Shown piece by piece: positions 3,835 to 11,801 of a DNA stretch of 11,801 nt (position 1 is the first letter of the stretch; every line of letters begins with the position of its first letter). A program made the position numbers and the translations under genes. The notes under the pieces are model-generated. The model was not told the origin of the DNA. It made no database searches and saw only the letters and a program-made list of their open reading frames with translations. This stretch comes from Ignisphaera sp. (lineage in GTDB: Archaea; Thermoproteota; Thermoprotei_A; Sulfolobales; Ignisphaeraceae), in assembly GCA_038889075.1 (NCBI GenBank), contig JAWAHS010000019.1, positions 1-11,801 on the forward strand, given 5' to 3'.

Positions 3835-4506
3835 ATGAGCAGCGATGTAATTGAACCAAAACAACTCCAGATACAGGCTGTACTTGCTGAGGAAAATCTA
3901 ATAGAACAATTAGATGGCTTCTTCAATAGAATATCAAACATTATCAGCGAAATAGATGAGATGTTTAATGATATATTTCAGAATCGTTTAGAAGTTTTAA
4001 GGACAAGAATTATAAAGACGCTAGGGATGAGTAGAGATGCTAGAAACAGCTATAGGAATATCCTTGAATACGCTTCTCGAGTTGCTCCAGCACTAATAAC
4101 AGGTAGCTACTATCTCAATATGTTGAGCAACTCATCGGAATTGCTCGAAAGAATAAACAAATTATGCAAACACCTCTCCCTACTACAGTTTCCTCATCAG
4201 CCGAATGAAGATGTAATAATATCTGTTCAGAAGACATTAAATATGTTGGTAAGTAGCATAGATAGATTGCGAAATGTATTAAAAGCGTATGTAGAATTCC
4301 CAGTAAAGGCAGATGGACTTCTCGCTGAACTTCTAAAGATTGCCCAGAATCTCAGAACATATTACGACGAATCGTATCTGAGTCTAGGGAAGAGCAATAT
4401 TGATACCGTGTCCATCATTGTGATAGACGACATAGATGGTATTGTGGATTCATTTATAAAAATATATGAGGCTCTGTCATGTCTTCATGTAATGAAGAGA
4501 AGGTAG
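3835..4506 (+). CDS. Degenerate DUF47/PhoU-like tandem helical-bundle protein
   Basis: All-helical 223-aa protein. Segments ARNSYRNILEYASRVAPALITGSYYLNMLSNSSELLERI and IDDIDGIVDSFIKIYEAL follow the DUF47 helix pattern (D-x-I-x-D). The family call is inference. Confidence 0.6.
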   Translation: MSSDVIEPKQLQIQAVLAEENLIEQLDGFFNRISNIISEIDEMFNDIFQNRLEVLRTRIIKTLGMSRDARNSYRNILEYASRVAPALITGSYYLNMLSNSSELLERINKLCKHLSLLQFPHQPNEDVIISVQKTLNMLVSSIDRLRNVLKAYVEFPVKADGLLAELLKIAQNLRTYYDESYLSLGKSNIDTVSIIVIDDIDGIVDSFIKIYEALSCLHVMKRR

Positions 4507-5060
4507 GTAATGCAAAAAGAGTTTTCACCATAGGCCAAAAGGGTTTCCTATTCGATTCAACTCTGGGAAATGAATTATTTAAGAAATTCTTTGGCAAACC
4601 TATGGAGGAATCCAAGCCAAGTCCACTAAAAAATTACGATCAGCCATTTGTTTTATCTATCTATGAAGTATTCTATCTGTGTAGTAAGGGTCTAATTTCA
4701 GCCTCTATTGGCAGTAGCGAAGCTAAATGCAGCGAGCTTGCAGACTATGCTAATAAGGTTGTCAGCAATTTTAGCCTAAAGTACCACGTTTATAGGGATC
4801 TTAGAGAGAAGGGATATATAGTTAGAAGTGGTATGAAGTTTGGTGCTGATTTCACCGTATACGAGCTAGGCCCCGGATTAGAGCACGCACCATATGTCGT
4901 TACCGTAACTTCAGCTACGAATCTACTGCGATCCATAGATATTGTAGGTCTTGGTAGGCTTAGCCATAGTGTTAAGAAAAAGTCTGTACTTGCAGTCGTT
5001 GATAATAGAGAGCATCATACTGGAATTAACTATCTAGTTTTTAAGTGGGTTAAACCATAA
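4479..5060 (+). CDS. endA: tRNA-splicing endonuclease, catalytic alpha subunit, crenarchaeal type
   Basis: YHVYRDLREKGYIVRSGMKFGADFTVYELGPGLEHAPY...GRLSHSVKKK contains the Tyr-His-Lys triad. The N-terminal FFGKPMEESKPS...PFVLSIYEVFYL matches the crenarchaea-specific loop region. Overlaps the upstream gene by 28 nt. Confidence 0.96.
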   Translation: MSSCNEEKVGNAKRVFTIGQKGFLFDSTLGNELFKKFFGKPMEESKPSPLKNYDQPFVLSIYEVFYLCSKGLISASIGSSEAKCSELADYANKVVSNFSLKYHVYRDLREKGYIVRSGMKFGADFTVYELGPGLEHAPYVVTVTSATNLLRSIDIVGLGRLSHSVKKKSVLAVVDNREHHTGINYLVFKWVKP

Positions 5061-5716: not shown

Positions 5717-5771
5717 GTCTCAGACCTGCGCGAGTCTATCACTTTTCAACCCTTTCGAGCTTCATCATCAG
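5717..5771 (-). ncRNA. Box C/D guide sRNA immediately downstream of tRNA-Asn
   Basis: On -: C ATGATGA (5768-5762), 12-nt guide AGCTCGAAAGGG, D' TTGA (5749-5746), AAA, C' GTGATAG (5742-5736), 12-nt guide ACTCGCGCAGGT, D CTGA (5723-5720). This is canonical archaeal spacing in an intergenic location. Confidence 0.88.
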
Positions 5772-5782
5772 ATATAGAATAG

Positions 5783-5855
5783 CGCCGGGGGGAGGATTCG
5801 AACCTCCGACCACGGGGTTAACAGCCCCGCGCTCTACCAGCTGAGCTACCCCGGC
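5783..5855 (-). tRNA. tRNA-Asn (GTT), intronless, CCA not encoded
   Basis: GCCGGGGTAGCTCAGCTGGTAGAGCGCGGGGCTGTTAACCCCGTGGTCGGAGGTTCGAATCCTCCCCCCGGCG folds into a full cloverleaf with anticodon loop CT-GTT-AA and G discriminator. Confidence 0.98.
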
Positions 5856-6823: not shown

Positions 6824-7123
6824 CTATGTCTCTTCACCGCCGTATTCTTCCTCATGTAGAAGTTCTAGGAATAGCTCCTTATAGTACTCCTCTTTCTCCT
6901 GCTCTATCTCCTCCTTCTTCCTAGCTATTGTCTTGCCGTTACTTATAACTGAGGTTGTGTGAATCCTGGTGTTGGTAGACGTTGTGGTCTCTATTTTATA
7001 GGATGATGGCTGTTTGGAAATTTCGTATCCACATTTGGAACACTTCAATACTGCAGATCCTTCTCCTTTCTTAGTTGGTACTAGGAGATTTCCACATTTT
7101 GGACAAAATTGCGTAATCACCAC
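6824..7123 (-). CDS. TFS/RpoM-family paralog with N-terminal zinc ribbon only and an acidic C-terminal helix
   Basis: QFCPKCGNLLVP...LKCSKCGYE is the RpoM/TFS N-terminal ribbon. There is no second CxxC pair and no catalytic (R)SADE hairpin. The protein ends EEIEQEKEEYYKELFLELLHEEEYGGEET. Confidence 0.85.
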   Translation of the reverse strand: MVITQFCPKCGNLLVPTKKGEGSAVLKCSKCGYEISKQPSSYKIETTTSTNTRIHTTSVISNGKTIARKKEEIEQEKEEYYKELFLELLHEEEYGGEET

Positions 7124-7157
7124 CCAGCCATGTAGGTATGTACTTGCCTGTTCACAG

Positions 7158-7172
7158 CTTATAAATTTATGC
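7158..7172 (-). promoter_or_regulatory. BRE-TATA box for the TFS-like gene and its downstream partner
   Basis: GCATAAA-TTTATAAG on -, TATA at 7165-7158, about 35 nt before the start at 7123. Confidence 0.6.
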
Positions 7173-7188
7173 CTTTCTATTTCTCAAT

Positions 7189-7255
7189 CATCAGCGTCTA
7201 GCGTCTTCTTCATTACCTCTATAAGAGGCTACGTGGTAATACCTGTCATCATCTG
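7189..7255 (-). ncRNA. Box C/D guide sRNA nested in the 3' end of the 95-aa ORF
   Basis: On -: C ATGATGA (7252-7246), 12-nt guide CAGGTATTACCA, degenerate D' CGTA (7233-7230), stem GCCTCT-TAT-AGAGGT, C' ATGAAGA (7213-7207), 12-nt guide AGACGCTAGACG, D CTGA (7194-7191, TGA = ORF stop). Confidence 0.78.
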
Positions 7256-7478
7256 GTATAGCTATCTCTATATTTTTGTAGAACTCTATAATCTTTTTGC
7301 ACAGCTTAGCCTCGCTTACGCTAATACATGGTGTACACAGCATTTCTCCGGTATTGAGCTCTACTACTACCCTTTCTCTATTATCATCGCATACCGTGGT
7401 GGTGGCTGAGACTATCATCCCCATCATTGCATACCCTTCGATATCCATGGGTTTTACATATTCCTTGCAGCTATCCAT
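7191..7478 (-). CDS. Hypothetical protein, 95 aa
   Basis: Starts 3 nt after the argS stop and is co-directional. Contains 5 Cys including CTPC. No family recognised. Confidence 0.75.
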   Translation of the reverse strand: MDSCKEYVKPMDIEGYAMMGMIVSATTTVCDDNRERVVVELNTGEMLCTPCISVSEAKLCKKIIEFYKNIEIAIPDDDRYYHVASYRGNEEDARR

Positions 7479-7481
7479 TTT

Positions 7482-9398
7482 CTATAACCTCTCTAGAGGT
7501 TCTATGCCGAGTACCTTAAATGCTCCTCTAAGTATCTGGTTTACAGCATATGTTATAATGAGTTTAGAGTTTCTCACACCCTTAATAGTTTCAAGTACTA
7601 TAGGCTCCTCATCATACCATGAATTGAATTCGTCTGCTAGTCTAATTATATATGTGGCTATTATTGAGGGGTCTAGCTCGGTATAGCTCCTATAGAATAC
7701 ATCTGGGTACTCGGAGACCATTTTTACAAGTCTCCATCTTCTTGGGCTATTCTGTGCAAAGTGTAGATCTGCTTCCCTAAGAATTGTGCTCCAGTCAAGT
7801 TCTATACCAAGCTCCTTGGCTTTTCTAAACACACCTTCAGTTCTTGCAAATGTGTAGAGTAGATATGGTGCTGAGTTCCGTTCAAAGTTTAGCACATTAT
7901 CCCACGAAAATTTGACCGGTCTCGATGGATTTACTGAGAGTAGGTAGAATCTTACGGCTGCTATACCTATAGCCTCTGCTATTTCTTCAGATTTCATACC
8001 CCTCTTTTCAAGTTCTGCTAACGATCTCACCTTAGCTTCCTCGAGCACGCTATCTAGCGTTACTATTCTTCCTCTTCTAGAGCTCATCTTAGTTCCCTCC
8101 ATGTTTACTATTTCATAGCTATAGTGTACCAGGTTTTCTGCCTCTCTATGGTATCCCAGCATGTATAGAGCCAGTCTAAGCTGCGCCTGTGGCAGTATTT
8201 GTTCAGATGCAATGACATTTACAACCTTATCAGCATTGTAGTCTCGGAATTTTTTTATCGAGTATGCTATATCTCTAACTGTGTATAGCGATGTACCATC
8301 GCTTCTTAAGAGTACTAGTGGTGGTATCTCTAGATTCTTCGGTATTCTTAATCTATTCCTTATACCCTCTGTGGCTAGAATCTGTCTAAAATCTACTGCT
8401 ACGGTCCCTTTGTATTCAGATGATATCTTCTTTAAGGCTTCTATAACCTTGTCGACTTCTCCACTCCAAACCAGATCGCTTTCCCAATCCCATACATCTA
8501 TATCTGCTTTGAATCTCTTAAGCGTCTGGTTTAAACCTTCTATACACAGGGATACCGCCTTCCGGGCTACTCTACTAACCTCCTCTTCCCCCTCTTCGTA
8601 GCCTTTCATTATTCTCGAAATTTCCCTCTCAATATCTGTATTCTTTAACCTCTCTAGTATCGTATCGAATACATCAGGTGCCTGTTCTCTCAGTCTTGCC
8701 GCATCTACTATAAGACTATCTAATTCTCTCTGTATCTCTCTTCTCCTCTCTTCACCACCCTCTATCTCCAGCCTCCTCTTTAGGTATGTTATCTCTATAA
8801 TAGTGTTAGTTATAGCGTATACGAGTCCTATCCAATGGTCCGGCTTCATACCCTTTGGAGGCTCTACATCTCTCAGCTGGCTAATTCCTAGTGTTAGTAT
8901 GGCTACCTGTCTACCGACATCATTTATGTAGAATCTTGTCTGAACATCGTTACCTACAGCCCTATTTATATTGGCTATGAAGCTCCCTATTGCTGCATTT
9001 CTAGCCGCTCCTATATGTAGGGGGTGGACAGGGTTTGCAGAGACGTACTCAACAACGACCCTTTTCCTATCACTCTCTCTATAGACTCCGTATTCCGCTC
9101 CGCTAGATACTATCGATGTAAATACGAGCTCTGTAAATTTGGGTCTATTAAACCACATATTTACATACAATCCAACGATGTCTACCTTCGATATATAGCT
9201 ACAAGTTTCTACGGACTTTACTATCCTATCGATATACTCGTTTCCCTGTGGTAGTTTAGATAATACTATAGTTAGATCTCCGTATTCCTCACGAGGAATT
9301 GTAAGCGATTCTCTAACGGCAGCAGGTTCTATACCTAGCTCCCTCGATATCTCTATAGATATGCAACTCCTAATGGTTTCAAGAGGATTTGCAGTCAT
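7482..9398 (-). CDS. argS: Arginyl-tRNA synthetase
   Basis: VEYVSANPVHPLHIGAARN (HIGH-like), YINDVGRQ, LRSDGTSLYTVRDIAY, KMSSRRG (KMSKS-like), APYLLYTFAR and C-terminal LGIEPLERL. Confidence 0.98.
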   Translation of the reverse strand: MTANPLETIRSCISIEISRELGIEPAAVRESLTIPREEYGDLTIVLSKLPQGNEYIDRIVKSVETCSYISKVDIVGLYVNMWFNRPKFTELVFTSIVSSGAEYGVYRESDRKRVVVEYVSANPVHPLHIGAARNAAIGSFIANINRAVGNDVQTRFYINDVGRQVAILTLGISQLRDVEPPKGMKPDHWIGLVYAITNTIIEITYLKRRLEIEGGEERRREIQRELDSLIVDAARLREQAPDVFDTILERLKNTDIEREISRIMKGYEEGEEEVSRVARKAVSLCIEGLNQTLKRFKADIDVWDWESDLVWSGEVDKVIEALKKISSEYKGTVAVDFRQILATEGIRNRLRIPKNLEIPPLVLLRSDGTSLYTVRDIAYSIKKFRDYNADKVVNVIASEQILPQAQLRLALYMLGYHREAENLVHYSYEIVNMEGTKMSSRRGRIVTLDSVLEEAKVRSLAELEKRGMKSEEIAEAIGIAAVRFYLLSVNPSRPVKFSWDNVLNFERNSAPYLLYTFARTEGVFRKAKELGIELDWSTILREADLHFAQNSPRRWRLVKMVSEYPDVFYRSYTELDPSIIATYIIRLADEFNSWYDEEPIVLETIKGVRNSKLIITYAVNQILRGAFKVLGIEPLERL

Positions 9399-9703: not shown

Positions 9704-9892
9704 CTAAACCACCTCATTGCAGCAATGGTATGGCACCTCAGTTCTATTTTTAATATAAGAAGTATTATAAGCTAATACACAAACGGTGAACAAACCAATA
9801 AGTAAGGGAGATGCGGACACCAACCAATTGCTACATTAAAATGCTGTACCGATGAGCACTGTACAGGCCCACTTGTACCTGGCCCCACCCCA

Positions 9893-11801
<1,909 letters not shown>

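Follow-up and report, generated by a model that had tools for sequence, protein, structure and literature searches.

The minus strand of the window, that is, of the whole stretch of 11,801 nt analysed here, carries at positions 7252-7191 what is very probably a functional archaeal gene for a dual-guide box C/D sRNA. The RNA lies wholly within the end of a small ORF, whose stop codon is the UGA of box D, and both of its guides match helix 18 of the 16S rRNA. The window belongs to an assembly of 25 contigs, 1.95 Mb in total and about 40% G+C. The parts of the RNA and the ORF that hosts it are listed below.

7191..7252, minus strand: core of the whole box C/D sRNA, 62 nt, located by the sequence, the strict pattern and the covariance model
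7252-7246, minus strand: box C, AUGAUGA, translated within Asp-Asp-Asp
7245-7234, minus strand: D' guide, 12 nt, CAGGTATTACCA as DNA and CAGGUAUUACCA as RNA
7233-7230, minus strand: D' box, CGUA, degenerate
7229-7214, minus strand: D'-C' spacer, GCCUCUUAUAGAGGUA, 16 nt, a hairpin of 6 bp with a 3-nt loop
7213-7207, minus strand: C' box, AUGAAGA
7206-7195, minus strand: D guide, 12 nt, AGACGCTAGACG as DNA and AGACGCUAGACG as RNA
7194-7191, minus strand: box D, CUGA, of which the UGA at 7193-7191 is the stop codon of the 95-aa ORF
7478..7191, minus strand: host ORF, 95 aa, with a domain of about 70 aa and a tail (residues 76-95), ending in DDDRYYHVASYRGNEEDARR before the stop codon

This layout agrees with the initial annotation, which had read boxes C and D, two 12-nt guides and a C' box AUGAAGA in the last 20 codons of the ORF; all of these are present on the minus strand. 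Box D does double as the stop codon, as had also been proposed, because its UGA ends the 95-aa ORF. The span given at that time, 7189-7255, covers the right element, but is a few bases wider than the core at 7191-7252.

The box C (RUGAUGA), the box D (CUGA) and the two guides that characterize an archaeal C/D sRNA are all found, and both guides are exactly 12 nt long. The C' box departs from the consensus at one position and the D' box at two, although the final A of D' is invariant in the homologs. Because of these two departures, the D' guide may pair with its target without directing methylation. The register of D' as CGUA, which had been fixed earlier from this one sequence, is confirmed by relatives that have the canonical CUGA, or CAGA or CCGA, in the same column; the variants counted in this column are CUGA (6), CAGA (7), CCGA (1), UUGA (2), AUGA (2), CGUA (6), CCUA (1) and CUUA (1). 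The spacer hairpin consists of the pairs G.U, C-G, C-G, U-A, C-G and U-A with the loop UAU, and is present in the centroid fold. It is followed by an A, then by the AU of C' and then by GA, which amounts to a 3-nt bulge ahead of GA. Both the 6-bp hairpin and the bulge had been pointed out before; they are seen in the sequence, and their register is backed by the covariation described below. The tandem repeat of the 7-nt unit AGACGCT, which had been raised as a caveat, is real, but it is simply the D guide continuing into box D, and in its place AGACACTAGACGCTGA is found in two of the three closest relatives. The flanks of boxes C and D offer about 2 bp when read from the sequence, which is no convincing terminal stem, and the fold energy of the sRNA is unremarkable (z = -0.15; 80 of 200 shuffled sequences fold at least as well).

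For the statistical evaluation of the layout, we used a strict C/D pattern consisting of RTGATGA, 12 nt, 4 nt, a spacer of 2-20 nt, TGA[ATG]GA, 12 nt and CTGA. This pattern has 16 matches in the 1.95-Mb genome and 0 matches in each of 10 shuffled genomes. The segment 7191-7252 is its sole match in the window outside rRNA, and the other 15 matches in the genome, whose spacers are 2-14 nt long, look like C/D sRNAs of the ordinary type. In addition, a covariance model, R1, was built from 25 homologous sRNA sequences. It scores 67.3 bits at 7188-7255 of the window, and it has matches at E <= 0.01 in 128 of the 151 genomes of the order and matches of at least 40 bits in 53 of the 151. Since the second match of R1 in the window's genome is an unrelated C/D RNA that scores 21.7 bits, scores in the 20s are read as generic C/D matches. 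The family with larger genomes (f13) mostly has no R1 match (5 of 18 genomes, all weak). In the window's own genome, which is 99.6% complete, the sRNA is single-copy.

Rfam gives no match at the sRNA site at the gathering thresholds. When the E-value is relaxed, four generic C/D families align there with 10.7-18.3 bits; for example, sR11, sR2 and sR1 score 18.3, 16.1 and 10.7 bits, whereas their gathering thresholds are 39, 42 and 45. The generic box C/D layout of these three families aligns over the full model length (7189-7256, minus strand), but with scores below the gathering thresholds the window's RNA is no member of them. Low scores of this kind are to be expected of an RNA that has the generic C/D layout but unrelated guides.

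The initial annotation named no target for either guide. We find that both guides match helix 18 of the 16S rRNA, that is, the 530-loop in the decoding-centre region. The genome's own 16S rRNA gene (contig C19:13466-14971) contains AAGUCUGGUGUCAGCCGCCGCGGUAAUACCAG; here the D' guide CAGGUAUUACCA forms 9 Watson-Crick base pairs with GGUAAUACC at guide positions 2-10, and the D guide AGACGCUAGACG forms 10 base pairs with GUCUGGUGUC at positions 2-11, two of which are G.U. By the fifth-nucleotide rule, methylation is directed to the nucleotide opposite the fifth base of the guide, counted upstream from box D or D'. The complementarity covers this position in both guides, and the predicted 2'-O-methyl sites are A488 for the D' guide and U469 for the D guide in the gene's own numbering, 19 nt apart. 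A488 corresponds to A532 of E. coli and to A509 in the numbering of Dennis 2015, and U469 is one nucleotide 5' of G491 in the latter. Each match is only weakly significant by itself, as an equally good one is reached by 434 of 20,000 shuffled D' guides and by 1418 of 20,000 shuffled D guides. Because this single-guide null is weak, we used a joint test together with the comparative data below; both matches fall within 100 nt of each other in 2 of 20,000 guide shuffles. The proteins of the modification machinery are also present in the genome, which encodes fibrillarin and Nop5 side by side, plus two L7Ae-family proteins (Pfam PF01269, fibrillarin, 341.5 bits; PF01798, Nop5, 250.5 bits; PF01248, L7Ae, 100.1 bits). 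We know of no sRNA catalogue for the Ignisphaera lineage, and with the predicted RNA, this uncultured hot-spring archaeal lineage would gain a well-supported guide RNA whose target nucleotides in the 16S decoding centre can be named.

To place the RNA among known guides, we compared it with those described by Dennis et al. 2015 (PMC4644070), of which part of the text and supplement was available. According to that part, helix 18 is predicted to be a hotspot of methylation, and three species have a predicted site at A509 (E. coli A532); in the family of Sac-sR115, Pca-sR28, Tte-sR114 and Iho-sR21, the D' guide is directed to A512 and the D guide to G491. The guides of Sac-sR115, as given there, pair with the same two segments of helix 18 as those of the window's RNA, and the two RNAs have GGUAUU in the D' guide and a GACAYCAGA-like sequence in the D guide in common. 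The sites, however, are slid by 3 nt (A509 instead of A512) and by 1 nt (5' of G491), so the combination of A512 and G491 that marks the family is replaced in the window's RNA by A509 and the nucleotide 5' of G491. The RNAs of the Sac-sR115 type in this source have short spacers, unlike that of the window, and homology with them is read from the guides alone. The window's RNA is thus either a relative of Sac-sR115 with slid guides or a separate family. Another RNA in the available data of PMC4644070, Iho sR104, has the D' guide UUGGUAUUACCG with the same GGUAUUACC core and a predicted site at 16S A509, a likeness that again comes from the guides alone; its D guide and the predicted targets 16S G1130/G438 are unrelated to those of the window. 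Iho sR104 resembles the variant found in two of our loci (L023 and L025).

A search of the genome for a second sRNA directed to A512/G491, made by looking for complements of 16S positions 451-510 beside box-like motifs, gave no convincing candidate. As a separate observation, contig C1:36229-36239 (minus strand) of genome G000 contains AUGAGGA followed by GACUUGCCCCCA, which is complementary to 16S GGGGGCAAGUC. This 16S segment is directly 5' of the target of the D guide, and AUGAGGA-GACUUGCCCCCA may belong to another helix-18 C/D sRNA.

Homologs of the host ORF were sought in 61 related genomes. The host protein has homologs in 34 of the 61, including all 16 genomes of the same genus, and the ORF was located in 28 of the 30 loci compared. 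Note that the compared loci are kin, and counts across them overstate their independence. With this reservation, 25 of the 28 loci have, at the 3' end of the ORF, a C/D sRNA whose guide cores are the same; it was not found at this place in the other three (L024, L028 and L031). All 25 aligned loci agree in TGATGA, GGTATTAC, the final A of D' and CTGA. The initial annotation had suggested aligning homologous loci as a check, and the outcome is the one expected of an RNA gene: boxes and guide cores are kept at the nucleotide level, and the peptide tail is absent or different, the ORF of most homologs ending earlier, in box C.

The variation in the guides follows the target. A 32-nt stretch of 16S that contains the target is identical in all 12 genus genomes that hold it, and it is found with at most 3 mismatches in 36 of the 61 genomes, those without it mostly lacking an assembled 16S. 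Positions 3-10 of the D' guide form Watson-Crick pairs in 25 of 25 homologs, and the D guide forms at least 9 contiguous base pairs at the same site in 22 of 25. The changes in the D guide turn Watson-Crick pairs into G.U pairs (position 6 in 10 of 25 homologs and position 8 in 8 of 25), while positions 1 and 12 of the guides are mostly unpaired and free to vary. Exceptions are an 11-nt guide with the same core in L016 and a different D guide in L023 and L025. Since variation is limited to changes from Watson-Crick to G.U against a fixed target, the alignment bears the signature of selection on guide-target pairing.

When one genome per species was scanned with the pattern, the sRNA was found in 46 archaeal records, which are titled Ignisphaera, Zestosphaera, Desulfurococcaceae or Desulfurococcales, or Sulfolobales MAGs. 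The sole non-archaeal match (L049, titled as a bacterial MAG) is without a comparable C' box or ORF context and was taken as chance.

The comparative data also bear on the structure of the internal motif. In the homologs, 79.3% of the cells of the spacer helix are paired, compared with 64.9 +/- 3.3% in shuffled alignments, none of 500 of which reaches the observed value; helix registers slid from the proposed one pair 13-49% of the cells. Changes on both sides occur at five of the six pairs. The D' box ends in UA in nine loci, all of which have spacers of 10-16 nt with stems of 2-6 bp in the correct register, whereas D' ends in GA in all four loci whose spacers measure 3 nt (K-loop type). This coupling between D' boxes of the UA type and stem-bearing spacers is suggestive, the loci being kin. 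Since the key A of the G.A pair is kept and the spacer helix is real, it is reasonable to predict that C'/D' in this RNA forms a proper kink-turn with its own stem and not a K-loop. The K-turn geometry that had been ascribed to the D'-C' spacer earlier is judged reasonable on the strength of this covarying stem.

The position of the host stop codon differs among the 25 loci, as follows.

Inside box C (A-UGA-UGA): 12 of 25 loci
Overlapping the first base of box C: 2 of 25 loci
13-24 nt upstream of the sRNA: 4 of 25 loci
Within the RNA: 3 of 25 loci (the UGA of C' in L016, a UAG in the spacer in L026 and L027)
The UGA of box D: 4 of 25 loci (the window and its three closest relatives, L003-L005)

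Among these loci, therefore, the subclade of four species alone reads through the whole RNA to box D. Between the conserved Tyr codon and box C, a count gave 22 or 25 nt for two of the read-through species, the window and L003, and 23 nt for L008, which stops in box C; this shift in spacing implies a net frame change that put the UGAs of box C out of frame. We also examined the wider set of 46 archaeal loci, which is selected by the pattern, overlaps the 25-locus set and excludes the window's own genome. In this set, the stop codon is upstream in 8 loci, in box C in 10, internal in 20 and in box D in 8. Many of these loci translate the RNA in another frame (...MMxGITYDL...), and at least three more lineages have their stop in box D, with tails ending in DDRDTRS, NDYDARR and HEEDTRR. 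From this spread over upstream, box C, internal and box D positions, the stop codon is seen to hop among the UGA-bearing motifs of the RNA, in two reading frames across the family.

Such a history is best explained as follows. In the ancestral state, the sRNA is attached to the 3' end of a small conserved gene downstream of argS, and box C normally contains the stop codon of this gene. The subclade of four species has undergone a frame change ahead of this box, by which its UGAs were moved out of frame, and the ORF is now read up to the UGA of box D, which adds a tail of 20 aa with a sequence set by the RNA.

The codons of the four read-through species show what this does to the protein. In the folded domain (74 codons), 30 first, 28 second and 55 third codon positions are variable, whereas in the tail (19 codons) the corresponding numbers are 5, 2 and 3. 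The contrast at third positions, 3 of 19 in the tail against 55 of 74 in the domain, is significant (Fisher p = 4.6e-6). The few substitutions in the tail affect the bases right ahead of box C, guide position 12, the D' box, the spacer and the site of G.U/A-U alternation in the D guide, and those in the spacer preserve the stem. In the AlphaFold model, the tail has a pLDDT of 44-56, compared with 91-97 in residues 11-70, and is predicted to be disordered. Frozen third positions together with this predicted disorder lead us to conclude that it is the RNA that sets the sequence of the peptide tail. This supports the earlier suggestion that the tail may be a by-product of the overlap. The C-terminal motif RYYH.A..G.EED.RR of the four species would then be conserved as a guide RNA and not for the protein, which makes a clean natural case of an RNA gene dictating a protein sequence and calls for caution by annotators and users of dN/dS.

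Overlap of archaeal C/D sRNAs with ORF ends, which the initial annotation had mentioned as frequent, is already described. According to the part of PMC7994747 available, which cites Tripp 2017, 25% of the sRNA genes include the stop of the gene that lies upstream, in any of the four boxes, and almost half of these stops fall within box C. Lui et al. 2018 (PMC6009581, likewise available in part) report 23 cases of a stop in box C. In Pyrobaculum, the same source gives 10 of 526 sRNAs as fully internal to a gene, 9 of these being antisense, and states that no target is predicted for 61% of the guides whose overlap with a 3' end is in sense. The window's sRNA shares the stop codon in a box with the cases described in these parts of the two papers, but it is wholly translated in sense and both of its guides have targets. 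A fully translated sense sRNA with both guides targeted is thus a rare configuration of a known phenomenon. The loci collected here provide a larger comparative set that illustrates the stop-codon plasticity described by Tripp 2017 and Lui 2018 (via PMC7994747 and PMC6009581).

Several other readings of the same segment have to be weighed. One is that the D guide alone directs methylation and the D' guide merely pairs with the 530 loop, either as a chaperone or inactively. This would fit a D' box that is without the G of the second sheared pair, U being there in 9 of 25 homologs. Kink-turns with U at this position are known, however, and the nine loci of the UA type have 10-16-nt spacers with stems of 2-6 bp that could compensate; moreover, no other part of the RNA is as conserved as the core of the D' guide, whose positions 3-10 form Watson-Crick pairs in all 25 homologs. 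We therefore consider an inactive D' guide rather unlikely. It is very improbable that the sequence in the read-through subclade is a relic that is retained for coding alone after loss of the sRNA function. Full embedding in sense is indeed rare, and gene-overlapping guides often lose their targets, according to the available part of PMC6009581, but a relic should not have frozen third positions (3 of 19 against 55 of 74), nor should each of the four species have kept every box and both pairings of guide and target, as they all do. The segment is also the sole copy in the genome, and selection at the protein level is an unlikely cause of its conservation, as the tail is predicted to be disordered. 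Finally, an acidic tail made of GAT and GAA codons might happen to spell C/D boxes, since GATGATGA and GAAGAAGA easily arise from Asp and Glu codons. The probability of this is close to nil: relatives have the same RNA outside any ORF and in another frame (MMxGITYDL), the strict pattern does not occur in any of the 10 shuffled genomes, and we regard chance resemblance as already refuted by the conserved RNA in the relatives' loci and other frames.

The genes around the sRNA are as follows.

7482..9398, minus strand: argS, arginyl-tRNA synthetase (Pfam tRNA-synt_1d and DALR_1)
6824..7123, minus strand: TFS/RPB9-like zinc-ribbon gene (Pfam/NCBIfam), downstream of the sRNA
5782-5855, minus strand: tRNA-Asn
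5720-5772, minus strand: second C/D-like sRNA, about 10 nt 3' of tRNA-Asn
9891-11801: partial archaeal 23S rRNA

As the initial annotation had proposed, the sRNA is probably made from the transcript of argS and the small ORF and then trimmed. The gap between the end of argS and the start codon of the host ORF is 3 nt, a GAGGU motif is located 9-13 nt upstream of this start codon, the order argS, ORF, sRNA and TFS-like gene is conserved in 20 of the 28 loci, all in the window's family, and no T-run follows box D in the window sequence. All of these fit co-transcription, as does the literature on promoterless sRNAs: in the accessible part of PMC7994747, most archaeal C/D sRNAs have no promoter of their own and depend on neighbouring transcription, and maturation needs the internal box motifs alone, in a transcribed context (citing Tripp 2017). 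A sequence TTTATAA is found about 35 nt past box D, and 'tttataa' downstream of the sRNA is conserved in close relatives. One contig of an RNA library, which comes from the single RNA run among 20 sequencing runs matching the window, spans 6930-8583 with argS, the ORF, an identical sRNA and the TFS-like gene; an assembled contig cannot show a transcript, its ends or a small RNA, and as the library may contain DNA, it is neutral evidence. Alternatively, the sRNA might be transcribed independently of the argS/small-ORF mRNA, from its own promoter within the coding sequence. A/T-rich, TATA-like stretches (attataga and aaaaatata) are indeed present 17-40 nt upstream of box C, and about 20% of archaeal C/D sRNA genes have a TATA-like motif of their own, again according to the accessible part of PMC7994747. 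On the other hand, these stretches encode the conserved I-I-E-F-Y-K-N-I, their distance is not conserved in the relatives, and such strings are common because the genome is A/T-rich. The linkage to the 3' end of the ORF in 25 of 28 loci also fits dependence on the host promoter, as does the reliance of most sRNA genes on neighbouring transcription. An internal promoter thus retains some probability, albeit a low one, and processing from the host transcript is preferred.

In a C/D RNP, L7Ae binds the C/D kink-turn and C'/D', and Nop5 and fibrillarin then assemble. In the present case, assembly of the RNP would shield the body of the RNA within the argS/small-ORF transcript while nucleases trim the flanks. 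Each 12-nt guide would pair with helix 18, and fibrillarin would methylate the riboses of A488 and U469; pairing at two nearby sites would also fit a proposed chaperone role in rRNA folding. Because the sRNA lies wholly in translated mRNA with box D as the stop codon, a ribosome and the particle of L7Ae, Nop5 and fibrillarin cannot occupy this 3' end together. One might go further and suppose that host translation and RNP assembly are mutually exclusive in such a way that guide production is inversely coupled to host translation, but we consider this quite improbable. If true, the activity of ribosomes would be linked to their maturation by a built-in sensor, and the moves of the stop codon among box C, spacer, C' and box D would be a tuning of the coupling and not neutral drift.

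The host protein itself has a domain of about 70 aa that is conserved across the order and is predicted to adopt an alpha-beta3-alpha fold (pLDDT > 90). It has no Pfam family at E up to 0.01, the 28 members giving chance-level Pfam matches; NCBIfam gave nothing meaningful, and a profile search against the PDB gave chance matches (E > 0.2). Values of at most 0.90 to transposase-like bacterial clusters in a protein atlas were treated as noise. In fold searches with the predicted structure, eL38 ribosomal proteins come out on top (Foldseek E = 0.05; VIA Z 7.5, 6.8 and 6.8, the last being the 50S L38e chain of Pyrobaculum calidifontis). This likeness is a lead only, as it does not reach the level at which a small fold of a common type would be excluded. 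A separate candidate for eL38 is encoded in the genome (contig C3, 68 aa), and its profile comparison with the host protein gives a probability of 0.2%.

The product of the downstream TFS/RPB9-like gene matches solely by its N-terminal zinc ribbon (TFS_arch, 40 bits with a cut-off of 64.75; TFS4, 25 bits), and residues 1-68 alone are conserved in relatives. It may be a TFS paralog without the catalytic C-terminal ribbon.

The second C/D-like sRNA, beside tRNA-Asn, is probably the one that the initial annotation had counted as the first. It consists of UGAUGA, the guide UGAAGCUCGAAA, a degenerate D', a C'-like GUGAUAG, the guide ACUCGCGCAGGU and CUGA, and may be co-transcribed with tRNA-Asn. 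A search for its rRNA target gave none that is clear, the best pairings, in which G.U pairs are included, having 7-9 bp. The two guides are similar to those of Sac-sR114, which is without a predicted target in the available part of the PMC4644070 supplement.

With regard to the wider neighbourhood, the sRNA in the host ORF and the 3' end of the 23S gene are separated by about 2.6 kb, and the distance of the sRNA from its own 16S target is about 7 kb, on the same strand. The 16S target and the sRNA are also on one contig, about 6-7 kb apart, in other genomes (for example, G008, G007, G006, G016, G004, G003, G015 and G012), and from this proximity in several genomes of the genus the guide gene appears to keep company with the rRNA operon. 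In addition, a gene for a tRNA-intron endonuclease, with both Pfam domains, is located at 4479-5060 on the plus strand, a few kb from the sRNA and tRNA genes.
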